A stretch of 64,000 nt of DNA from an uncultured Alphaproteobacteria bacterium (lineage in GTDB: Bacteria; Pseudomonadota; Alphaproteobacteria; CAAGCB01; CAG-977): positions 20 to 64,019 of the forward strand of contig CALXTY010000001.1 in the NCBI GenBank assembly GCA_944391535.1, given 5' to 3'. The position numbers were made by a program, and so were the translations under genes. The number at the start of each line of letters is the position of its first letter. The first letter of the stretch is position 1. Under the pieces are notes generated by a model. The model ran no database searches. It was not told the origin of the DNA and saw only the letters and a list, made by a program, of their open reading frames with translations. This document shows positions 52,598 through 64,000 of the stretch, piece by piece.

Positions 52598-53150
52598 AGA
52601 AAACCCCGCGCTAGGCGCGTGGTTCGGGAAAGCTTATAGCTATGCACAAAAAACTCCTTTGATACAATGAAAGTCGGTCTGGTGGAACGACAATCGCTGA
52701 AGTCAAAGGAGCTATCATATGAATGATTTAAATAAACTATCACACACGACATGGAATTGCAAATATCACATAGTGTTTGCACCGAAATACCGCCGAAGAT
52801 GAGCGTGTCAGGATTTATGGGCTTTCTAAAGGGCAAAAGCAGTTTGATGATCTGCGAACACTGGAGCAACATCAAGTTCAAATACCGCAACAGGGAATTT
52901 TGGTGTAAAAGATATTATGTAGATACGGTTGGCAAAAATACGCGGCTAATCGCTGAATACATCAGGAAACAATTGGAAGAGGATGCCGCTTCGGATCAAC
53001 TGACCTTAGATATCACCGACCCGTTTACGGGTAGTAAGTAACGGATTGCACGCACTAAACCGACTTAACACCGTTCAGGCGTCGCCAGTGCCATGAGGGC
53101 TACGCCCGTATATGAAGAACCCCGCGTTTTACGCGGGGATCCCTTTTTGT
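52598..53150 (+). mobile_element. IS200/IS605-family insertion sequence remnant (internally deleted IS200-like)
   Basis: Terminal hairpins (CCGCGCtagGCGCG at the left end, CCCCGCGttttaCGCGGGG at the right). Interrupted tnpA with near-identity to enterobacterial IS200 TnpA peptides. About 150 bp shorter than an intact IS200. Confidence 0.7.
52719..53041 (+). pseudogene. tnpA: IS200 Y1-transposase tnpA, disrupted by an internal out-of-frame deletion
   Basis: Frame a gives MNDLNKLSHTTWNCKYHIVFAPKYRRR*. Frame b continues ...EIPPKMSVSGFMGFLKGKSSLM...KFKYRNREFWC.RYYVDTVGKN. About 40 codons, including the HxH catalytic region, are missing. Confidence 0.7.
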
Positions 53151-53157
53151 TTTGTTT

Positions 53158-54171
53158 TTAACGACCCTTTCCTTTTTGAGCGGCCGCTTTAACTGCGGAT
53201 TTGCTTTTTTCCAGTTTGACCTGTTTAAGAATGACCGCACAATTGGTTTTTTCTCCGTTTGAACGGTTGACGGCGATCTTGTCCAATCCCAACTGTTCGG
53301 CGGTACGTTTGTATTTCGTCATATACGGGAATAAAGCGCGGGACAATTTATAAGCTTGTTTTTCGCTGATGGATAATTTTGCAGACGTTTCCATAATCTT
53401 GTCGTCTTTTAAGAATTGGTTTCCGTCGTAGTCTTTGCATAAAGTATCAACGATCTGCTTTGTCGATCTGTTTTCAGCGAAATATTGCGGTTCCAGTTCT
53501 TTTTGTTTTTTCAGTTCTCGGGCGATCTGAGACATATAATCGACGTATGTATCCGCATAGGAAGATTTTACTTTCAGGTCATACCATGTTAACAAGGCAT
53601 CGGCGCGCGCTTTTTCGACATCACCTGTTTCTTTGAACGTTTTATCAAAAGCCGTGCTCATCGGCGCATAACCGGATTTTTGATGGGCGGCCCAGATTTT
53701 AGGATTTTTTTCACGCATTTCATGAGCGTACATCACTTCGGCTGCGCAAGCGTCTGCTTCGATCGCAAAACCGCTGACCAGAAAAGCCTTGGGGGTCATT
53801 TCGGGAGAAGTCGTTTCCATTTTGGAATCCTGCCAGGCATGACGGACTTCATGGACAAAAGTAACGGCCAAATCTTCGTCCGACATGGCAGGATTAAGAG
53901 CCACTAAATTATTGTCGGGAGAAAAATAACCGTAATAATTCATTTTTTCGAAAATAATTTTCGACCCTTTTTGTTCAAGGAACTCAAGCGTCTGTTGTCC
54001 GGTTTTGCTTTCGGCCAACATTTTTTTCAATCGTTCGAGTCTTTCTGGCGATTGATCGGCTTTTTGTTTTTTAAACGCCTTTGCCAAAGGACGGGAACGA
54101 TCCGCCTGTTGACCGCTGGGATAATGAGAAATGTTTCCGATTGCCAAAAATTCGTGGTAGCTTAAAACCAT
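53158..54171 (-). CDS. Hypothetical protein with HExxH zincin-like motif
   Basis: VTFVHEVRHAWQD (HExxH) with downstream Glu residues. No signal peptide. Confidence 0.4.
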   Translation of the reverse strand: MVLSYHEFLAIGNISHYPSGQQADRSRPLAKAFKKQKADQSPERLERLKKMLAESKTGQQTLEFLEQKGSKIIFEKMNYYGYFSPDNNLVALNPAMSDEDLAVTFVHEVRHAWQDSKMETTSPEMTPKAFLVSGFAIEADACAAEVMYAHEMREKNPKIWAAHQKSGYAPMSTAFDKTFKETGDVEKARADALLTWYDLKVKSSYADTYVDYMSQIARELKKQKELEPQYFAENRSTKQIVDTLCKDYDGNQFLKDDKIMETSAKLSISEKQAYKLSRALFPYMTKYKRTAEQLGLDKIAVNRSNGEKTNCAVILKQVKLEKSKSAVKAAAQKGKGR

Positions 54172-54248: not shown

Positions 54249-55490
54249 TTATAAATAAAGTTCTTCCGGCGTAAAACTTTTTCCGGCGGCGCCATTATTG
54301 ACGACGTGCATATACAACTGATAAAGTTTTTGGGCTTTTTGCAGGGCGAAACGGACGACATCTCTTTGAGTATCGAAGCCTTTTTGAGGATCGATCAAAG
54401 GAACCATAATCCTGATGACGGCTGTTTTTCCGTTTTCTTTAAAGAGCATATCGTTGTCCATATAGGGTTGATAAGGGGCTTGTATCGTCGCCAAAGGCGT
54501 CATTGCGAAAGACAGATCCATAAAGCCCTGCGGCATTTTATGTATAATTTTGATTTCACGTGGAAATTCTTGGGGATCGAATTCGACCCATGCCGCTTCT
54601 TCAGCACTTCCGGTCGGTTTTTGCATTCCCAGTTCGGGAAAAAGTTTTTTAACAAAAATTTGCATATCGTTAAAAAATTTCCCCACAATAGTATCTTCGG
54701 CTTCGCGATATCCGGGGGGCAGATTAAAGACGCCTCCGGGGAAGACGCGAAAGTCTGATGCGGAAGCTTTCTTTTTCGGGGTAAAGAGCATTTCACTATG
54801 TTGTGCGGAGATACCTTGCGAGGCAGACTGAAAAGCGAGCGCTTCTGTTGATATGTTTTGACAGGACGTCATTTGTTTTTTATCAGTGGCGGAATCGTTT
54901 TGATTTTGGACAATCGCACAGGATGTGACAGGCGGATTGTCTTGTTGCATTTGTCTGCGCCCTTGTTCGATCGCTTGTCGGATCAGCGTTTTTTTATAGG
55001 CGGATCTTTCGGGGGTGGCGCTGTTAGATTCAGCGGCGGCGCGTAAAAACCAATGTTCTATTTCTTCATAGCTCAGGTAGCTGGAAAAGTATTCGGAAGG
55101 TTCAAGGCTTGAAAAATAGGCTTGAGGAGAGAATAGACAAGTTAGATATTCATCCCAATATCCCTCTTGGACGCCTTTTTCGCCGAATTCAAAATATCGT
55201 TGAGCTTGCAGATTTTGTTTTGGCTGGTCAATTTTGTTTTCAATCAGTATAGCGCATTTCTGTCTGTTTGTCATTTCTTCAAAAACAAACAAGATATCGA
55301 CGGATCCCAGCGGTTCTAAGGAGGGGGTGTGCCATGCGCCGATCATTCGTCTGAATTGGCGCGTGCCGTTATAAAGTTTACTGACCAACCATTTTTTAAA
55401 AGGGTCAGAGGACAGCATTTCTTCTAAAACCAGAAGATCCATGTCTCTTTCGGCCAACAAAGTAAACGGAGGAGCGGCTAAATCAATCAT
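54249..55490 (-). CDS. Hypothetical protein with N-terminal PD-(D/E)xK (RecB-like) nuclease motifs
   Basis: D(ILFVFEE)...ILIENKID...QAQRY, i.e. D / ExK / QxxxY motifs within the first ~110 aa. The C-terminal ~300 aa are unassigned. Confidence 0.4.
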   Translation of the reverse strand: MIDLAAPPFTLLAERDMDLLVLEEMLSSDPFKKWLVSKLYNGTRQFRRMIGAWHTPSLEPLGSVDILFVFEEMTNRQKCAILIENKIDQPKQNLQAQRYFEFGEKGVQEGYWDEYLTCLFSPQAYFSSLEPSEYFSSYLSYEEIEHWFLRAAAESNSATPERSAYKKTLIRQAIEQGRRQMQQDNPPVTSCAIVQNQNDSATDKKQMTSCQNISTEALAFQSASQGISAQHSEMLFTPKKKASASDFRVFPGGVFNLPPGYREAEDTIVGKFFNDMQIFVKKLFPELGMQKPTGSAEEAAWVEFDPQEFPREIKIIHKMPQGFMDLSFAMTPLATIQAPYQPYMDNDMLFKENGKTAVIRIMVPLIDPQKGFDTQRDVVRFALQKAQKLYQLYMHVVNNGAAGKSFTPEELYL

Positions 55491-55547: not shown

Positions 55548-56291
55548 TCAAACATTAAAAAAGATTGATTTTCCGTGACGCATAATATTTTCAGCTTGTT
55601 GTGTTCTGGATCCGTCCGAGTGCATCAGGACGATCCCCGCGGATAATGTGGCGGCGGAACGTACACCTTTTCTTGCGATGACGATAAAACGTTTGGCGGG
55701 CAATCCTTCTTTTGTCCATATGGGCACAATCTGCAGGGCTCCCAATCTGGGATACAGCAGGGTCATGATTTCCGGCAATCGGTCGGCTCTGTTAATCATT
55801 GCGAAGCGACCGCGGGCGGAAACGTAGCGCAGACAGTTTAAGATCCATTCGTTCAAGGGACACTCTGATTCTCGGTGAGCGATATCGCGGATTTTAGAAG
55901 GAGAGGGTTGTTTATCAAGAACAAAGGGAGGATTTGTTACGACCCAATCGAAAGTCCCTGTTTGCAAACCGTCGATTTTTTTGGAACGTATATCGGCTTG
56001 CAAGATATTGATTTTGTCGGACAGTCGGTTCATGGCAATATTATCCCGAGCCAAATTGATCATTTCAGTTTGGATTTCGATTCCTTTTATTGTTATGTCG
56101 GGGCATCTGGCCGCTATACATAAGCTGACGGCCGCCGAACCGGCGCCGACGTCAAGGATTTTTTGTCCTTTTTTTGCGTTGACGCACGCTGCGAGCAGGA
56201 CGGCGTCGCTGGTCGCCCGATAACCGTTGACCGGTTGCTTTAGTTTAATTTTACCGCCCAAGAAATCGTCAATTGTAAAAGGATAATCCAT
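55548..56291 (-). CDS. trmN6: tRNA1(Val) (adenine37-N6)-methyltransferase
   Basis: Class I MTase motif I ILDVGAGSAAVSL and the TNPPF catalytic motif. Confidence 0.7.
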   Translation of the reverse strand: MDYPFTIDDFLGGKIKLKQPVNGYRATSDAVLLAACVNAKKGQKILDVGAGSAAVSLCIAARCPDITIKGIEIQTEMINLARDNIAMNRLSDKINILQADIRSKKIDGLQTGTFDWVVTNPPFVLDKQPSPSKIRDIAHRESECPLNEWILNCLRYVSARGRFAMINRADRLPEIMTLLYPRLGALQIVPIWTKEGLPAKRFIVIARKGVRSAATLSAGIVLMHSDGSRTQQAENIMRHGKSIFFNV

Positions 56292-56400
56292 GTGTCACCT
56301 GTAAAGATTGAAGCAGTGTACATTTTTTTTAAGGATAAAGTAACTTTTTTCTTGCAGCTGTGAATTTTTATGTTATTCTCGGCGCTGTATTGAATGACGT

Positions 56401-56476
<76 letters not shown>

Positions 56477-56483
56477 TAAAAAC

Positions 56484-56507
56484 CGCAGGAAACTGCGGAT
56501 TTTTTAT
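56484..56507 (+). terminator. Terminator hairpin after tRNA-Ala (CCGCAGgaaaCTGCGG + T6)
   Basis: 6-bp stem with GAAA loop, followed by ATTTTTTAT. Confidence 0.55.
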
Positions 56508-56625
56508 GCCTAAAAGAAAATGGTTAATTTTTAAGTTTTGCATTTTTTGACTATTTTTTGACCGTTTTGACACCTGAAAACATCTTCTTTGACAATCGAG
56601 AACCGTAAAAATTCTTTTGCGCGGG

Positions 56626-56785
56626 TAATTTCGGAAATTTCGATTTTAACAAAAGCAATCTGTCGTCCTTCTTACGGAATTTCGGTAATAAGGGAAACGA
56701 TAAACCTCTTTTCTTATTTTATCGGCGATTCTTGTGAAAGAGCTATCTTCGGTATTTTCGGGAAAACTCGGAAATCTCGTTTCAG
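56626..56785. repeat. Four copies of a TCGGnAATTTCG-like motif between tRNA-Ala and the HU gene
   Basis: The four copies are tcggaaatttcga, cggaatttcgg, tcggtattttcgg and tcggaaatctcg. They are spaced irregularly within 160 bp. Confidence 0.25.
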
Positions 56786-56791
56786 GCATAA

Positions 56792-56825
56792 AAAAGGCGC
56801 GTCCGAACGGACACGCCTTTATCTG
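56792..56825. terminator. Bidirectional hairpin terminator 3' of the HU gene (GGCGCGTCCgaacGGACACGCC flanked by A- and T-runs)
   Basis: 9-bp stem with one mismatch. A5 upstream and T-rich downstream. Confidence 0.45.
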
Positions 56826-56839
56826 TTTTTGAACCGGTA

Positions 56840-57112
56840 TTAGTTCAAGGCGTCTTTCAGACCTTTACCGGCTTTGAATTTCGGCTGTTTGGAAGCCGGA
56901 ATCTTGATTTTGGCACCGGTGCGCGGATTGCGACCTTCGGCCGCAGCACGCTTGGCAACGCTGAACGTGCTGAAGCCGACCAAGCGAACTTCGTCGCCTT
57001 TTTTCAATGTCGCGGCAACCGTGTTCAACAAGGCTTCCGTCGCTTTTTCGGAATCAACTTTCGTCAAGCCGGTGTTCTTCGCGATTTCAGCCACTAATTC
57101 TGCTTTGTTCAT
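56840..57112 (-). CDS. DNA-binding protein HU
   Basis: 90 aa. Contains MNKAELV, the beta-arm RNPRTGA and KIPA, i.e. the canonical HU/IHF fold signature. Confidence 0.9.
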   Translation of the reverse strand: MNKAELVAEIAKNTGLTKVDSEKATEALLNTVAATLKKGDEVRLVGFSTFSVAKRAAAEGRNPRTGAKIKIPASKQPKFKAGKGLKDALN

Positions 57113-57744
57113 AATGCAACTCCATAATCAAATATAAACAGAAGCACAGCTTATCCTTTTTTCAAGGTTTAAGCAAAGTCTTTTCTTGATTGTCAATGCC
57201 CTGTCGCTTAATAGAAAGGTCATTTTCCTTTTTCTAAATTGATACGTGAAACCAAAAAATATTGTCTAAACAAGAACAATGCATTATAATTACTCCTAAT
57301 AAGAAGTTGCAGTCCTATTGTATAGACTGTTTTTCCCTTCTTCTTTTTCAATATTTTTTAGAATTGAAAGGACGAATGACAATGGAAATATCAGTTTATT
57401 TAATCTGTTCTTCTTTTACAGTTTCTCTGGGCGGGAGATAAGAACAAATCTATACAATTGGACGAAACCCGAGAAGCTGTAAAAACGAAAAAAATCTCCC
57501 ACCAAAATAGAGGAGCCTTTTAATTAAGGCTCCTTTTCTCTTGATTGTCAATTCCCTCCGCCTGACGGAAGAAAAACGGTTTCCCCGACTTTCGCTCCGG
57601 TGTCGTTGCAAGCCGGGCGATTCCCCTCCTTTTTCTTGGAATGACAATCGCTTTCTTCTCCCCGACGAAGCACCTCGTAAGGGTTTCAGGCGCGACGCCA
57701 AAAACCCTTTAACAAGTGCTTTTTACAGAGAAGGAGCTTTCAAA

Positions 57745-58617
57745 ATGACTGATAAATTCGACCTCATCGAAACCGTTTCAAACACCATCATCGAACGTTT
57801 GGAAAACTTTTCGGGCGAATGGGAAAAGCCGTTCATTTCCTCTTTTGCCCGGAACATCACGACAAAAAAGGCTTATCGCGGCATCAATATCCTAATTTTG
57901 AACTTTGCCGCTTTGTTCAACGGATTTTCTTCGTCCGTTTGGGGAACTTATCGGCAATGGCAGGAAAAAGGCTATCAGGTCAAGAAAGGCTCAAAGGCGA
58001 CGACCATCGTTTTCTGGAAGCCGCTTTCGTATAAATGCGAAGTCGAAAACACGGAAACCGGGGACATCGAAGAAGTCGAAAATCAGGCTTTTGTCGCCCG
58101 CGCTTATTCCGTTTTTAACGGTTCGCAAGTCGAGGGATTCGGCGAAGACATCGAAAAAGCCGAATTTAGCGTTGAAAAGGACGTGATGGCGTTCTTTGAA
58201 AACACGGACATCACCTATTTTTACGGCGCGACTTTGGCAGGCTATGACCCGAAAAACAATGTTGTCTTAATGCCGGAAAGAAAAGACTTCAAAACGGAAA
58301 CCGGTTTCGTTTCGACTTTGGCGCACGAAACAATCCACGCGACCGGACACAAGAACCGCTTAAACCGGGATATGAAAGGCCGTTTCGGAAATGAATCCTA
58401 CGCCTTTGAGGAACTGATCGCCGACATCGGCGCGGGATTTGTCGCCGGATATTTAGGCTATGACTATCAATTCAGCAAAAACAACCTTGCATATCTTAAA
58501 TCTTGGCTCAAGGTTTTGAAGAACGACAAAAAGGCGATTTTCAAAGCCTGCTCCGAAGCGCAAAAGGCTTTTGACTATCTGCTGACATTTCAGGAAATCG
58601 GACGGGAAGCGGCTTGA
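57745..58617 (+). CDS. ardC: ArdC-family antirestriction protein (ssDNA-binding N-domain + zincin-like metalloprotease domain)
   Basis: N-terminal YRGINILIL, C-terminal HExxH (LAHETIHATGH). AAGGAG RBS lies 8 nt before the ATG at 57745 (the ORF track begins at 57541 upstream of the RBS). Confidence 0.75.
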   Translation: MTDKFDLIETVSNTIIERLENFSGEWEKPFISSFARNITTKKAYRGINILILNFAALFNGFSSSVWGTYRQWQEKGYQVKKGSKATTIVFWKPLSYKCEVENTETGDIEEVENQAFVARAYSVFNGSQVEGFGEDIEKAEFSVEKDVMAFFENTDITYFYGATLAGYDPKNNVVLMPERKDFKTETGFVSTLAHETIHATGHKNRLNRDMKGRFGNESYAFEELIADIGAGFVAGYLGYDYQFSKNNLAYLKSWLKVLKNDKKAIFKACSEAQKAFDYLLTFQEIGREAA

Positions 58618-58647
58618 CCGCTTCCCGCAAAAAGAGGAGAAAGGACA

Positions 58648-58809
58648 ATGAAGATTGCATTTTTCAGACTGACGGTTTACGGCGCGGACGGCTACGAAAA
58701 AGAACATTTCGATTTTCACAGCAAAGCCGCGCAACTGTCCAAATTTTACGAACTGATAGCGCAGGGCTACAAGCGCAACGATTTGGAAAAGACGACATAT
58801 TACTTCTAA
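58648..58809 (+). CDS. Small hypothetical protein (53 aa) downstream of ardC
   Basis: AGGAGAAAGG RBS and ATG at 58648. Product is MKIAFFRLTVYGADGYEKEHFDFHSKAAQLSKFYELIAQGYKRNDLEKTTYYF. Below the ORF-track cutoff. Confidence 0.3.
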   Translation: MKIAFFRLTVYGADGYEKEHFDFHSKAAQLSKFYELIAQGYKRNDLEKTTYYF

Positions 58810-58903
58810 AAAATTCGGGCAGACACGATGCTGTGTCCGCCCCATTTTTCGCCCGATGCCACACCCGATTGCTTCGCAATCCGCCCGAAAAAAAATTTGT
58901 TCT

Positions 58904-60319
58904 TTAAGCATCTGTATTTTCATCATATTCTTCTGTTGGTAATTTTCTAATCTTATCAGATAAATGATCAACGAAAGACCTTAATTGTTCTAAACATTCA
59001 TCATAAGTAATTATACGCACATTTTTTTGATTATTTCTATAAAGTTCAAATGAGCGTTTATGAGATTTTTCAGTTAAACTGTTTAATTTTCCAACAATCA
59101 ACAATCCTTGAACATTATAGGCTTCAATATTTTTTTCTTCTGTCTCATGTGCTAGATTTGCAATATTAGTTTCAAGGTTATATTTTTGTGCTAAGAATTG
59201 AGATATTGCACCTGATAATTCATCAGACGGCGCAAAAACATCTGTTCCTCTATATGGTGTAATTTCTAATAACTTTGTAGATGGTTTCTTTATTTCAACA
59301 ATAAATGTATTATTTACAATTTTATGTTTTAGCAAAAAGTCAGGATATTTTCCATTGGTATTGTCAAACGATTTTCCACCAACATATGCTTGACTTTTAA
59401 ATTGTATATAAGGAGACCCCGCAAACAACGTCAACAACATAGGATTTTTTTGTAAAAAGTCTTGGTAACATTCCTCTTTGTGATTACCGCTAATTAAAAT
59501 CTCAAATTCATTTTTTAGAGCAGTCAGATATCCGAAGTCGATATTATCTTTTATTGCTAAAAGCCCCTCTTTATCTGCTGATGATATGTTTGATTTTTGG
59601 AAATCAACATTTCTAAGCGTCTTATATATAACATCCTTTTTTAGAGGAACTTTCTTTTCTGGATATTTCGTAGGAGCCAATTTATGTAAAATTTCTGAAT
59701 ACACAAATAAGGATTTACTGAAAGAAATTTCATCTCTCCCCTTTTCAACAATTCTATCAAGTCCACGTCTTATGGCATCTAAGTCCATATCATTTATAGT
59801 TATAGATGTTTCATTTACTTCTGATATACCATTTTTATTTATAATTAACTCAGAACAATTAGGTTGTTCTTCTGATATTTTTCGGGCAATTATATGATAT
59901 TCTCTTCTAAATCCCAATCCCTGAACAAGTGTAGATAAAAAAAGTTTTGGTAATCCTTTTAAAACACTAAATTTTCCATCATCACTTTTTTCTATACTAA
60001 TTTTATATCCATTAAAAATAATTCTTTCTATACCGTATTTTGGGAGTAAGAAATTTGGACTCTGTGCAAAAGTATTAAATGGATAAATTTTTGTAATTTT
60101 GTTTTTTGTATCAATTTCTAAAAGTAATTTGATGTGTTTTTTGTCCGTTTTTTCATCTTCTATAATGACGTCAGTTACGCTATCTATATAGGAATAAAAA
60201 CATTTTATTCTGCCATTATCTTCCTCTATCTTTATTCGTTCTTCTGCTGATTTCACTACGTCAAAATCAAGACCATCAGCGTCAAAATCGTCAAAGTTTA
60301 TTTCTTCTGTTGCATCCAT
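58904..60319 (-). CDS. Shedu-like defence protein (C-terminal DUF4263 PD-(D/E)xK nuclease domain, divergent N-terminal domain)
   Basis: C-terminal YPDFLL...TFIVEIKKP...GAISQ gives D / ExK / Q motifs in the order typical of DUF4263. Looks strongly AT-rich by eye. Lies 168 bp downstream of gajB on the same strand. Confidence 0.5.
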   Translation of the reverse strand: MDATEEINFDDFDADGLDFDVVKSAEERIKIEEDNGRIKCFYSYIDSVTDVIIEDEKTDKKHIKLLLEIDTKNKITKIYPFNTFAQSPNFLLPKYGIERIIFNGYKISIEKSDDGKFSVLKGLPKLFLSTLVQGLGFRREYHIIARKISEEQPNCSELIINKNGISEVNETSITINDMDLDAIRRGLDRIVEKGRDEISFSKSLFVYSEILHKLAPTKYPEKKVPLKKDVIYKTLRNVDFQKSNISSADKEGLLAIKDNIDFGYLTALKNEFEILISGNHKEECYQDFLQKNPMLLTLFAGSPYIQFKSQAYVGGKSFDNTNGKYPDFLLKHKIVNNTFIVEIKKPSTKLLEITPYRGTDVFAPSDELSGAISQFLAQKYNLETNIANLAHETEEKNIEAYNVQGLLIVGKLNSLTEKSHKRSFELYRNNQKNVRIITYDECLEQLRSFVDHLSDKIRKLPTEEYDENTDA

Positions 60320-60487
60320 TGTTCAGACTCCAATCAGCTTTATATTTTCTTTGAGAGATAACCTAAAGTTTAATCGACGTAAAGGTGTAATTAGAATTAA
60401 TTTTTTGAAGCTTTCAAGGCTATTATCAGATTAAAAAAATTGATATACGAAACAATCGAATCTGTTTGATTTTCGACAAAATCTATT

Positions 60488-62242
60488 TTAAGTGAGATTG
60501 GTTTTTTTTTGGAGATATTGAGTATAAGTAAAATAGTTTTTCTCCCCGACAAGATTAAGTAGAAACGATTTGAATTTATCGTCAATAGGTATAGATACAA
60601 ACAGAAATAACCTTTTTTTAGGCCTAGAACAGCATACATAAAACAAATTACGGTTTCTCTCAAAAGAAGGTTTGTCTTTTTCAGGAATGTCAGATTCTTT
60701 TGTAAACAGAGGGACAAACTTTTCAAACTGATAAAGATTCCATCCTTTGCTGATTACGAAAACAACATTTTCATATTCTTCTCCTTTAACGCCATGTTCC
60801 GTAGAAAAGAGAGCTTCGGGATACAAAAAATCTATAGCGGCCAAAAATTGTGAGTAATCTAAATCTAGAAATGATTGAACAGAGGTATCTGAAAAATATA
60901 TTGTTTCAGGCGCATTATGGTAGATACCATACCATTTATCCAATTCTGGGGATGTTGGGATTAGCTTCATTTGATATATAATTTCAATAATATCAATGGC
61001 TTTTTTGCTTCGAGCTTTTTCTAATCTTTTTTGAAAAATTTTCCATTTACTTTTTTCGGATTTCTTAGTAATTGGATATCTCTTAATTTTAAGTGTATCA
61101 AAAAGCAGCTGCATATTGGATGTTTCGAGGGCGTTGTAGATTGGTTCAACTATGTTCATAAAAAACAAAAGAAAAGGATCTTCTTTATTTTTTAAACTAT
61201 CTTTTAGAATGTATAAAAGTTTTTCATAACCTTGTTGCATAGCAAGAACGTTATGCGTAATCATTAAAACTTTCATCTTTTCGTCACTGGCTATATCTTG
61301 CGCTATTTTTTCAGTAATTTTAGTTAATCGGATTTTTAACTCTTCTGATGGTAAATCATCTTTAAAACTACGGTCTGTACGGCGAACACCGGTATAATCC
61401 TCACATGTGATTACAGTAACCTCACCTTGAAAATCATCAATTGCAGATATTTGTGGCAGGCTTGGACGAAGAATACTTAAAAGCTCAACGATTTTTGGCG
61501 CAGATCTAAAATTGGATTTTTTTTCTATGACTTTTAGATTTCCGTGTTCAATAATACCACATGCTTTGTTGGATTGATATATAGTTTGCCACGCATCTCC
61601 GAAAAAACCAAATTGAGGAGCTTTATTTTCAGAAATAAAATATTTAATGAAACGTTCAATAATCGGATTATAAGAATCTTGATACTCATCAATCAGAATT
61701 AAAGGGTATTTACTTGAAAATATATGGCGAAATTTTGCATTATCCAAAAGCTTGCAAAATAAATCCAACACTTCATTGTGGTAAAGAAACCGAATACCGT
61801 TTTCTATATATCGGTGTCCTAAAGTATATGTAACTTCAGAAATCTCGTCTGATTCATCTTGATGATCTATTATGAAGTTTGAATCTGTTTTAACAGCATT
61901 AATAAGAAAGCTCTGATACTGCTTGATTGCATTCCAAGCAAAGGAATGTATTGTAGAAGGAATAATGAAAGAATCTTTTGGTAATCTTTCTGTTATTACA
62001 TCAACGGCTGCATTTGTATAAGTGATGCAAACTATATTCTGCTTTCTTTTGTTATATTCAGCCCATTTGTTCGATTGAAGCCATTCAATGGCCTTATTAA
62101 GGGAGTAGGTTTTACCAGAACCCGCGCCAGCTTCAACACGAAAACTTTTTCCTTCTTGTAATGCTTCTATAATCTGTTGATCCGCTTTATCGGCTTCGGC
62201 TTTTGCGTGTTCATAATTAGAACTGTATTGATTTTTGTCCAT
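60488..62242 (-). CDS. gajB: Gabija GajB, UvrD/PcrA-like helicase
   Basis: SF1 helicase motifs I (GAGSGKTYSL), Ia (CITYTNAAVDVITERL) and II (LILIDEYQDS). Immediately downstream of an OLD-family ATPase-TOPRIM gene. Confidence 0.7.
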   Translation of the reverse strand: MDKNQYSSNYEHAKAEADKADQQIIEALQEGKSFRVEAGAGSGKTYSLNKAIEWLQSNKWAEYNKRKQNIVCITYTNAAVDVITERLPKDSFIIPSTIHSFAWNAIKQYQSFLINAVKTDSNFIIDHQDESDEISEVTYTLGHRYIENGIRFLYHNEVLDLFCKLLDNAKFRHIFSSKYPLILIDEYQDSYNPIIERFIKYFISENKAPQFGFFGDAWQTIYQSNKACGIIEHGNLKVIEKKSNFRSAPKIVELLSILRPSLPQISAIDDFQGEVTVITCEDYTGVRRTDRSFKDDLPSEELKIRLTKITEKIAQDIASDEKMKVLMITHNVLAMQQGYEKLLYILKDSLKNKEDPFLLFFMNIVEPIYNALETSNMQLLFDTLKIKRYPITKKSEKSKWKIFQKRLEKARSKKAIDIIEIIYQMKLIPTSPELDKWYGIYHNAPETIYFSDTSVQSFLDLDYSQFLAAIDFLYPEALFSTEHGVKGEEYENVVFVISKGWNLYQFEKFVPLFTKESDIPEKDKPSFERNRNLFYVCCSRPKKRLFLFVSIPIDDKFKSFLLNLVGEKNYFTYTQYLQKKTNLT

Positions 62243-62256
62243 AAATAAATTCCTTC

Positions 62257-64000
62257 CTATTCAAGAACTTTCTGGTCATTAAGCCACTTTAATCCAGATT
62301 TAATATACGCAGGAATGGTATATTCATGATATTCGTATATAAGTTTAAGGGCAAAAGTCGTTTTGCTTTTTTCATTAAATTCCAGATCGTCTTCGGTTGG
62401 GGGATCATTCAATTTATAATATTCGCGATTAACATTCCTAATTGCTTCCTCTAAAGAATGACCGCACAATCCGTTTTCCATTGTTTGAAATTCAATGTGG
62501 CATTTGTCTTTAGTTTTATCGTCGGGAGACATTGTTACAATGTCATTCAGAGTGATTTTCGTTTTATCATCTTCTGAAGACTGCTTGTTCCTACGAATCC
62601 ACCATTTTAATGTTTCATTGGATGTTGTATCGCCACTAGAAACAGGGGAAGATTTATAATATTTTTTCCCGTTTCTAGTTTGTTCCGACATAGAATCCAA
62701 ATCGGTAAGAATAAGGCATGGAATACCTAAAAACTCAGCAAAAGGAATAAACTTATAAGCATATGCCCCTCCAATTTCTATTAAAGCATAATACTGAGCA
62801 GGCAACTTATATTTTTGAGAATCGAAAATGCCTTCTTCCCCGCACTTTTCAATCATATCAGGTAGCAACAGACGTTCTGACGCACCTTCAACAAAGATAG
62901 CTTTATCAGCAAAAAATAAATCACATTTGGTTAGAGTAAGGTATTTTCTAATAAAATCGATGTTGTCAGAATGTTTCTGAGCAAATGTATTCAAATTTTT
63001 ATAAACAACCCCTGTTTTTGTTTTCTGAGCATACCGTATTTTCGAGAAAACCATAGTATTTGCGATGTGAGCAGAATGAGATGTCAAAAAAGTCTGAATT
63101 TTTACAGAGGTAATTTTTTTTAGAAAAGCTTCTAAGTAATCTGCAAAGGCGTGTTGCATCTGTGGATGCATATGTGACTCAGGTTCTTCAATGAATAATA
63201 ACGGAATGCAAGCTGTTCCGCATTGTTCCACTTCCTTTGCAAACGCTGCGAGAAGAAATTCCATTTTAATCAAATTCTTATACCCAAGACCATTAGAAGA
63301 ACCGGGGAGAAATTCTTCACTGTTCCCAGCTGTATAGGAAAGCCGTGTCTGATTTATTATTTGATCATTAATGTTTAATTGAGTTGTAACGCCTAATTGA
63401 AGTTCTTCGCCATTGGGATACCCAAAACCAATTGCACTACTTACAAGCTCACCCAGAATTTGATCACTTAGTTGCTGAATGTCTTTATTTGCTTTTTCGA
63501 CAGCGGAACGTAATTGCTTTATTTTTTTTGAAACATCTGAACCTAATTCATCTTCACTACGTTCAAAGAATTTTGAAATTAGTTCTAATAAAGAATCTTT
63601 TTGTGTCCCATCTTCTCCGAGAGAGCGTTCTGCTGGAATAATATCGTAAGGGAAAAGCTCTTTTAATTCTTTATATGATTTAAGCTGTTTTTCTTCAGGG
63701 TGCTTAGGGTTTACTGCATATACAGTAAATTCAAAAAGATTTTGAAAATTGGTAATAATAGTATTATGTGCATCTGTTTTAGGGGAAAAGGAGCCATCTT
63801 TATAATAGCTTTCTTCTAAAAGATTAAATAATTTCTTCTCATCTGATTTTAATTTAAATTCCACGCGGATCAGAGCTTCGTTTATACTCTCATCTACATC
63901 AATGATAAAAGGTGATAATGCGCCTAAATTATCACCCGAGGCCTCTAAAGAATAATTTACAAAAAACTCTATAGATATAGGCTCAATCTGCTCACATAAT
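62257..64000 (-). CDS. gajA: Gabija GajA, OLD-family ABC-ATPase + TOPRIM nuclease (5'-partial; N-terminus beyond window end)
   Basis: Walker B/D-loop LLFIEEPESHMHPQMQ, a C-terminal TOPRIM motif FVEGASERLLLPD, and DxD. The reading frame stays open to nt 64000. Precedes the UvrD-like gene by 14 nt. Confidence 0.7.
   Translation of the reverse strand, partial: LCEQIEPISIEFFVNYSLEASGDNLGALSPFIIDVDESINEALIRVEFKLKSDEKKLFNLLEESYYKDGSFSPKTDAHNTIITNFQNLFEFTVYAVNPKHPEEKQLKSYKELKELFPYDIIPAERSLGEDGTQKDSLLELISKFFERSEDELGSDVSKKIKQLRSAVEKANKDIQQLSDQILGELVSSAIGFGYPNGEELQLGVTTQLNINDQIINQTRLSYTAGNSEEFLPGSSNGLGYKNLIKMEFLLAAFAKEVEQCGTACIPLLFIEEPESHMHPQMQHAFADYLEAFLKKITSVKIQTFLTSHSAHIANTMVFSKIRYAQKTKTGVVYKNLNTFAQKHSDNIDFIRKYLTLTKCDLFFADKAIFVEGASERLLLPDMIEKCGEEGIFDSQKYKLPAQYYALIEIGGAYAYKFIPFAEFLGIPCLILTDLDSMSEQTRNGKKYYKSSPVSSGDTTSNETLKWWIRRNKQSSEDDKTKITLNDIVTMSPDDKTKDKCHIEFQTMENGLCGHSLEEAIRNVNREYYKLNDPPTEDDLEFNEKSKTTFALKLIYEYHEYTIPAYIKSGLKWLNDQKVLE

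Follow-up and report, generated by a model that had tools for sequence, protein, structure and literature searches.

A type I Shedu nuclease, probably stacked as separate cargo beside a two-gene Gabija system on a mobilizable defence island

The window analyzed in this study, a 64,000-nucleotide stretch of DNA from an uncultured gut alphaproteobacterium, carries an open reading frame for a Shedu-like protein directly behind the two genes of a Gabija system. This arrangement raised the question of whether the protein constitutes an immune system of its own stacked beside Gabija, or the third component of an uncharacterised Gabija variant, both of which had been put forward in a first-pass annotation. 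A further question concerned the N-terminal part of the protein, which had appeared unrecognisable. The gene and its parts were delineated as follows.

58904..60319, minus strand: sduA coding sequence, type I Shedu immune nuclease, 471 aa plus stop (ORF list, Pfam, PADLOC, PDB)
60239..60319, minus strand: acidic N-terminal tail, residues 1-27, with 11 D/E and 1 K/R (net charge -10), mostly disordered in AlphaFold2 (AF2) models
59792..60238, minus strand: beta-rich N-terminal (putative sensor/regulatory) domain, residues 28-176, with one helix at 139-151 (AF2, conservation, PADLOC)
59483..59791, minus strand: helical linker, residues 177-279, with helices 177-214, 228-237 and 247-277 (AF2), its C-terminal part homologous to the linker of B. 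cereus Shedu
58907..59482, minus strand: DUF4263/SduA_C PD-(D/E)xK nuclease domain, residues 280-471, with catalytic D327, E342 and K344 and invariant Q374 and Q378

The reading frame starts with ATG, preceded by GGAG approximately 11 nt upstream. The profile search for PF14082/DUF4263 that had been proposed as a check returned SduA_C on residues 280-441 (E = 3e-27; 96.2 bits versus a cutoff of 27), the sole Pfam domain in the 471-aa protein. As many as 21 SduA profiles of PADLOC matched, the best being PDLC00384 (9.3e-100) over essentially the full length and the second-best PDLC00380 (2.5e-61) over residues 61-456, and a search of NCBIfam gave no matching model. In a phmmer search of PDB sequences, the Shedu protein of Bacillus cereus (8TI8) was retrieved at 2.2e-27, with VEIKKP placed opposite LIEIK in the wild-type sequence and LIAIK in that of the catalytic mutant 8TI9; E342 was thus assigned as the catalytic Glu, since it aligns with the Glu changed to Ala in the 8TI9 construct. 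In an alignment of 90 sequences, D327 (within YPDFLL), E342 and K344 (VEIKKP), Q374 (ISQ), and Q378 were all invariant. The 471-aa product at 58904-60319 and its C-terminal PD-(D/E)xK core, both read from the letters in the first pass, were therefore in agreement with the ORF list and the alignment.

The full-length AF2 model (pLDDT 80) led to the same family. Foldseek retrieved 8TI8, 8TI9, and 8PS4 at E = 5e-12 to 3e-10, with TM to target of up to 0.81, and the runners-up were restriction enzymes and HamA at E > 0.008. A homologue search over 5.8 billion proteins revealed a large full-length family with approximately 45-50% identity across more than 90% of the length, chiefly from Bacteroidota, Chlorobi, and Spirochaetes, several members of which are named 'Shedu immune nuclease family protein'. 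Pfam, PADLOC, 8TI8, and Foldseek thus concurred with the original reading of a Shedu SduA having a C-terminal nuclease and an N-terminal sensor region of the variable type, and the ORF is a type I Shedu SduA with an intact D-E-K triad.

In keeping with the type I layout, residues 1-279 precede the nuclease. Pfam gave nothing at E <= 10 on residues 1-280, an HMM of the N-terminal region found nothing among PDB sequences at the same threshold, and Foldseek of the N-terminal model yielded no significant match in either the PDB (best E = 0.12) or BFVD (best E = 0.045). The earlier description of an unrecognised domain, within some 300 aa free of assignable motifs, therefore stood with respect to Pfam models and solved structural relatives, but failed with respect to PADLOC, the SduA profiles of which already contain the domain: the N-terminal residues alone matched PDLC00384 at 4.5e-28 (residues 27-220) and PDLC00380 at 1.8e-15 (residues 61-220). 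A profile of the region collected 524 clusters (50% identity) among 1.84 billion representatives, including 367 at E <= 1e-10. Because PF14082 was present in 90 of the 98 longer matches tested, the domain was counted as Shedu-specific; it is a common module occurring essentially only in Shedu, and is not new.

Structure prediction, which had also been suggested for this region, gave a well-folded beta-rich domain (pLDDT 88 and pTM 0.80 for the N-terminal domain-only model) with no significant relative in the PDB. Confidence was low in the tail, with pLDDT values below 50 at residues 1-16 of the full-length model and residues 1-6 of the N-terminal one; the two 10-residue blocks covering residues 1-20 of the latter averaged 44 and 59. 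Conserved positions in residues 28-176 were P80, K94, Y95, L123-P124, F127, G134-L135-G136, and Y141. Two helices carry conserved basic residues: R139 and K/R142 are on helix 139-151, and R184, R185, R189, and K202 lie near the beginning of the long helix, the linker contributing K257 in addition to the latter four. As a separate observation, one protein among the matches (P0167) was exceptional in having HsdS-like sequence followed by the N-terminal domain at the protein end.

Residues 108-214 read beta-beta-alpha-beta-beta-alpha, one strand short of the Type 1B (NRF1) core, which runs beta1-beta2-alpha1-beta3-beta4-beta5-alpha2 and has a basic cavity between its two helices (Gu et al., 10.1101/2023.08.10.552793). 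The conserved basic residues on two helices of SduA recall this cavity, as a resemblance drawn from AF2 secondary structure. A different identity, that of a divergent sPC4/Whirly/PUR-like binder of Type 1A, would imply activation by ssDNA or RNA and not by dsDNA ends. The predicted secondary structure, with beta-meanders and then helices, points in this direction, as do the Pur-alpha structures 3K44 and 8CHT among the weak Foldseek matches; moreover, the nuclease domain has its closest solved relative in B. cereus Shedu, a Type 1A protein with an sPC4/Whirly N-terminal domain (Gu et al., 10.1101/2023.08.10.552793). However, the Pur-alpha matches lie at noise level (E >= 1, probability 0.02), the match of the family profile to B. 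cereus Shedu begins at linker residue 133 and leaves out its N-terminal domain, and PDB sequences yielded no match to the N-terminal profile. We accordingly regard a Whirly-like binder as rather improbable, and as a weaker alternative to the recognition of DNA ends or another DNA structure.

The neighbouring genes were then compared with known Gabija components.

60488..62242, minus strand: gajB, 584 aa, UvrD-type helicase (PADLOC GajB PDLC00113, 2.9e-196; Pfam UvrD-helicase)
62257..>64000, minus strand: gajA, ATPase plus OLD-type TOPRIM, cut by the window edge (PADLOC GajA PDLC00063, 1.1e-164; Pfam AAA_15 and OLD-like_TOPRIM)

The order, gajA and then gajB at a spacing of 14 bp, is that of canonical Gabija. 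A truncated GajA, as implied by the GTG start at 63864 in the ORF list, was rejected, given that the frame is open to base 63999, that is, to the window edge; in a related metagenomic contig (L083), gajA encodes 661 aa at full length.

In a Gabija variant with three genes, SduA would belong to GajAB as its own third subunit or effector, co-transcribed with it and functionally dependent on it; one possibility under this proposal is that SduA cuts DNA ends produced or exposed by Gabija. The proposal draws on the shared strand and short spacer, on an arrangement kept in six metagenomic contigs of one island, and on reports that both Shedu and Gabija act at DNA ends (PMC12904381; PMC12407980). It predicts that the two partners should keep company in their relatives, and the loci of each partner were inspected in turn. 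The scan of the SduA subfamily, with one genome per species, returned 80 loci with 10-kb flanks. In tblastn searches with the GajA and GajB of the window, a single query pair by which a very divergent Gabija could be missed, neither was found at any of these loci (0/80), the sole weak signal being a UvrD-like one 6 kb away in L020. The immediate neighbours of sduA varied, as befits a single-gene system, and included HsdS (10 loci), a 672-aa unknown protein (9), DUF499 with a HEPN ATPase (8, actinobacterial), and a DUF3644 protein (8). Conversely, the metagenome scan for GajB returned 80 loci with GajA and GajB 67-75% identical to those of the window, and within 6 kb of these no SduA homologue was detected (0/80; 52 of the loci have at least 1.6 kb 3' of gajB). 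The genes 3' of gajB there were heterogeneous and fell into many unrelated clusters.

The order gajA-gajB-sduA recurred only in contigs with 98-100% identical SduA (L081 and L083-L086), and L083 shares 95.7% nucleotide identity with the window over 9 kb. Since the contigs keeping the arrangement are 96-100% identical, they represent one island lineage and do not provide independent support. In the more distant relatives L087 and L082, with 81% and 74% identical SduA, respectively, gajB is absent upstream of sduA, and the convergent ardC is kept where the contig allows. GajA and GajB, for their part, match the canonical two-gene profiles at full length, and Shedu is established as a single-gene system (10.1101/2023.08.10.552793; 10.1101/2023.08.10.552762). 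Taken together, the adjacency belongs to one lineage and is seen in the relatives of neither partner, which makes a three-gene Gabija variant highly unlikely and favours the other alternative that had been raised, two stacked systems. From this synteny, we conclude that SduA and Gabija are most probably evolutionarily independent systems placed side by side.

How the two came together is suggested by the junction between them.

60320..60487, minus strand: gajB-sduA spacer, 168 bp (alignments; promoter/terminator scan)

The ORF coordinates gave exactly the distance of 168 bp from gajB, on the same strand, that had been claimed. The sduA-proximal ~90 bp of the spacer are homologous to the 5' region of sduA in the relatives lacking gajB (L082 and L087), in which sduA is preceded, instead of by gajB, by an element of ~130 bp (element X). 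In the window, element X lies at 57545-57690, behind the start of ardC. Its hairpin was considered as a bidirectional terminator and rejected, because shuffled versions of the sequence fold about as well (z = -0.86). The sduA upstream region of the relatives contains a TTGACA box resembling a -35 element, in place of which the window has CCTTGAAAGC. These comparisons led us to conclude that Gabija probably inserted beside a resident sduA-ardC module, or that two modules recombined at the junction. The junction would thus show cargo being exchanged at the promoter of a defence gene already in place, and would illustrate the growth of defence islands.

A scan of the spacer for terminator-like hairpins found none. 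A sigma-70 promoter scan placed no site in the spacer, and, because its total of 9 sites is at the level expected by chance (9.3), is silent as to whether sduA has a promoter of its own. With no hairpin in the spacer and the TTGACA box replaced, read-through from gajAB may drive sduA, and co-transcription of the three genes is possible in this island. Such read-through, which also counts in favour of the three-gene proposal, would allow a combined account in which Gabija inserted at the sduA promoter, replaced the TTGACA box, and left sduA as part of a de facto three-gene unit whose two end-directed systems synergise. According to published reports, Gabija acts at the ends of phage DNA under RecBCD antagonism (PMC12904381; PMC12407980); if the combined account were true, Gabija would answer phages protecting their DNA ends against RecBCD, and Shedu would attack the ends that are exposed, a synergy found in neither system alone. 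We consider this combination very unlikely.

On its other side, sduA faces a gene of the element itself.

57745..58617, plus strand: ardC-like gene (ArdcN plus zincin metallopeptidase; Pfam), convergent with sduA
58817..58842, no strand assigned: terminator-like GC-rich hairpin with A-run/T-run flanks and a 10-bp stem with 7 GC pairs (scan and sequence)

The hairpin is positioned 3' of sduA, between the convergent sduA and ardC/53-aa ORF units. According to the gene tables of L081-L086, ardC is a conserved neighbour of sduA in relatives 74-100% identical. In L083, sduA is followed downstream by the 53-aa ORF, ardC, an HU gene, and tRNA-Ala(GGC), the tRNA gene lying at 56401-56476 in the window; beyond gajA, upstream, there are two small ORFs, MobC, a relaxase, and a type III restriction-modification (R-M) system. 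PADLOC assigned nothing to the 53-aa ORF, to the two small ORFs 5' of gajA, or to the 672-aa neighbour of the distant loci, and a megablast of window positions 56000-64000 against plasmids matched the tRNA-Ala gene only. The remainder of the window, including dnaX, is chromosomal; the nearest named relatives of dnaX, at about 80% identity, come from 'MAG: Alphaproteobacteria bacterium', in assemblies that are mostly of human-gut type. The setting is thus a mobilizable defence island with relaxase/MobC, type III R-M, and ArdC.

Base composition divides this island. The last 5 kb of the window have a GC content of ~30%, versus ~44% elsewhere; by gene, the values are 28.8% for sduA (29-32% in L082 and L087), 32.4% for gajB, and 34.3% for gajA. 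The low GC of these three genes, compared with 43-47% in the ardC, relaxase, mobC, and type III R-M genes, fits separate acquisition of the two systems.

In such surroundings, sduA might chiefly serve the mobile element, as an end-sensing nuclease that excludes rival plasmids, ICEs, or linear DNA, or that stabilises the island. The gene sits between the relaxase/oriT region and ardC on an island equipped with relaxase, MobC, and ArdC, and its pairing with ardC is kept in the 74-100% identical relatives. Shedu is, in addition, strongly associated with transposable elements and prophages (Gu et al., 10.1101/2023.08.10.552793), and blocks the propagation of linear DNA, for which a role in mobile-element competition has been suggested (Loeff et al., 10.1101/2023.08.10.552762). 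Such a role is, however, compatible with anti-phage defence, and distant members of the subfamily reside in chromosomal operons with type I R-M or DUF499 genes, away from conjugation genes. Service to the element as the chief function is therefore unlikely in our estimation.

All these considerations pointed to a self-contained type I Shedu nuclease stacked, as cargo of its own, beside canonical two-gene Gabija on a mobilizable island, a reading to which we assign a probability of approximately 85%. The solved Shedu enzymes form homotetramers via their nuclease domains, and truncation of their N-terminal part is activating or toxic (10.1101/2023.08.10.552793; 10.1101/2023.08.10.552762); the B. 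cereus enzyme becomes active once its N-terminal domain is removed (Gu et al., 10.1101/2023.08.10.552793). The B. cereus and E. coli enzymes have N-terminal domains with no detectable relationship to that of the present protein. [quoted passage not shown] The ligand might be free DNA ends or another structure of phage or plasmid DNA, a guess to which we give roughly even odds, and the conserved basic residues R139, R184, R185, R189, and K202 are putative contacts. Once activated, SduA would nick or cut the invading DNA. Gabija would act in parallel, so that the pairing amounts to additive stacking in a defence island and not to one machine. Given that Gabija reportedly acts at the ends of phage DNA upon antagonism of RecBCD, Shedu and Gabija may be complementary.

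Beyond correct annotation, the importance of this locus is slight: what it contributes is a further defence island with both Shedu and Gabija on a mobilizable element, and its SduA is a regular representative of a known family, the Shedu anti-phage nucleases. The N-terminal domain comes from a Shedu subfamily that has already been sampled but is structurally and functionally uncharacterised. Being a family of ~500 clusters that is confined to Shedu, confidently foldable, and devoid of a Pfam model or solved relative, it would make a reasonable target in the search for another Shedu sensing mode, and the signal recognised by the domain could be something other than DNA ends.

Compared with solved systems, the protein is nearest to the Shedu of B. 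cereus B4264 (8TI8/8TI9), with which it shares a homologous nuclease and part of the helical linker (family profile 2.8e-60 over chain residues 133-381; Foldseek 5e-12, TM to target 0.65-0.81), the order of N-terminal domain, linker, and nuclease, and the aligned catalytic Glu. The two differ in total length (471 versus 382 aa), in the size of the N-terminal domain and linker (~150 aa plus ~100 aa here versus 117 aa plus ~50 aa), and in the N-terminal domain itself, for which there is no detectable sequence relation. E. coli SduA (8PS4/8PS5) is likewise homologous in its nuclease domain (profile 2.3e-11, Foldseek 2.2e-11), whereas full-length superposition on it is poor (rmsd 22.7 A, TM 0.33-0.38). 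That enzyme, a type I Shedu with the same succession of N-terminal domain (1-145), linker (146-188), and nuclease (195-408), senses DNA ends by means of a clamp (Loeff et al., 10.1101/2023.08.10.552762). As Foldseek of the N-terminal model did not retrieve this N-terminal clamp domain from the PDB, DNA-end sensing by the present SduA would be an analogy only.

Among proteins known by sequence, the closest named members are 46-50% identical and derive from Chlorobaculum, Polaribacter, and Flavobacterium, under the family name already mentioned, and the subfamily of PDLC00384/PDLC00380 is that of the present SduA, with no difference of substance. Shedu has been found embedded in R-M and BREX loci (Gu et al., 10.1101/2023.08.10.552793), with which the HsdS and other neighbours of the 80 SduA loci agree. 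The neighbouring GajA and GajB are the two components of canonical Gabija, of which SduA is no part. Finally, a survey of 5,401 Type 1 Shedu proteins sorted their N-terminal regions into 79 clusters, 59 of them unnamed (Gu et al., 10.1101/2023.08.10.552793), and the N-terminal domain described here is of a kind catalogued among those 79.

The GC content of sduA, the Shedu nuclease gene, was 28.8% and that of gajAB was 32-34% (window 58904-64000), as compared with 43-47% in the surrounding element and 44% in the host. Since these values lie far below those of both the element and the host, base composition points to a recent acquisition of sduA and gajAB from low-GC donors. The closest relatives of SduA were from Bacteroidota, and those of GajAB were found on gut contigs with 33-45% GC. 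The island could be followed past gajA on L083, a metagenomic contig of the same island lineage.

L083:1-5669 (past the right edge of the window): island genes upstream of gajA, namely two small ORFs, the MobC and relaxase genes, and res and mod of a type III R-M system

The two small ORFs (137 and 90 aa) had no assigned role. Because L083 adds MobC, the relaxase and the type III R-M genes, the element is mobilizable, with a cargo of at least three defence systems and ArdC.

Around sduA and the convergent ardC, the following features were recognized.

57545-57690, minus strand: element X, ~130-150 bp, intergenic, behind the ardC start
L082:1-130 and L087:1-100: element X in the relatives, directly upstream of sduA
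58648-58809, plus strand: conserved 53-aa ORF beginning MKIAFFRLTVYGADGYEKEHFDF
60239-60319, minus strand: strongly acidic N-terminal tail of SduA (residues 1-27), with 11 D/E in 27 residues

Element X comprises an A-run, an imperfect hairpin, a T-run and then the box ATTGACAATCAAGA; the box TTGACAATCAAGA, as in element X, also lies upstream of the HU gene (~57195, minus strand). The hairpin showed no excess stability over shuffled sequence (z = -0.86). In L082 and L087, whose SduA proteins are 74% and 81% identical, respectively, sduA is immediately preceded by element X, and both of these short contigs end within it. These breaks inside element X suggest that it is present in repeat copies in the two genomes and that it may flank the sduA-ardC module. 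The 53-aa ORF, placed straight after ardC and ahead of the shared hairpin at 58817-58842, was also found in L083, L086 (the same island lineage) and L087, and gave no match to PADLOC profiles. As for the acidic tail, structure models showed it to be mostly disordered, and it was kept in the 74-81% identical relatives; that it serves as a DNA-mimicking, autoinhibitory segment is pure speculation.

Further genes of interest lie on the other side of tRNA-Ala.

54249-55490, minus strand: gene for a 413-aa protein with sub-threshold matches
53158-54171 and 55548-56291, both minus strand: its flanks, a putative metallopeptidase with DUF6782 and a small methyltransferase of the MTS type
52751-53041, plus strand: 96-aa ORF just after nhaA

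The matches of the 413-aa protein were weak (PDDEXK_4, E = 0.004; PADLOC candidate system PDC-S26, 2e-5), and together with its two flanking genes it may constitute a further defence-like module. By eye, the 96-aa ORF resembled the C-terminal half of an IS200/IS605-type TnpA (…FMGFLKGKSS…FWCKRYYVDTVG…), and could be a transposase remnant.

In P0167 (639 aa), retrieved by a profile search of representative clusters, residues 412-615 form the Shedu N-terminal domain; an HsdS (Methylase_S) N-terminus comes before it, and the nuclease domain SduA_C is absent. Either the two parts are truly fused, or a frameshift or contig end has produced an artefact. Members of the SduA subfamily with ~30-34% identity (L013-L027; Leclercia, Citrobacter, Erwinia, Vibrio, Halomonas and others) lie in a tight operon of HsdS, a 9-bp gap, SduA, a 4-bp overlap and a conserved 672-aa protein. 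The latter, which had no Pfam or PADLOC match, carries GHKL-like DNGCGFD and PD-(D/E)xK-like VIEIKRP motifs, and may be a recurrent SduA partner. In the actinomycetotal loci (L029-L047), SduA is bordered on one side by a ~1130-aa HEPN(Swt1) + DUF499 ATPase, 8 bp away, and on the other by a DUF3644 protein, 5 bp away, a conserved setting that is BREX/Pgl-like.
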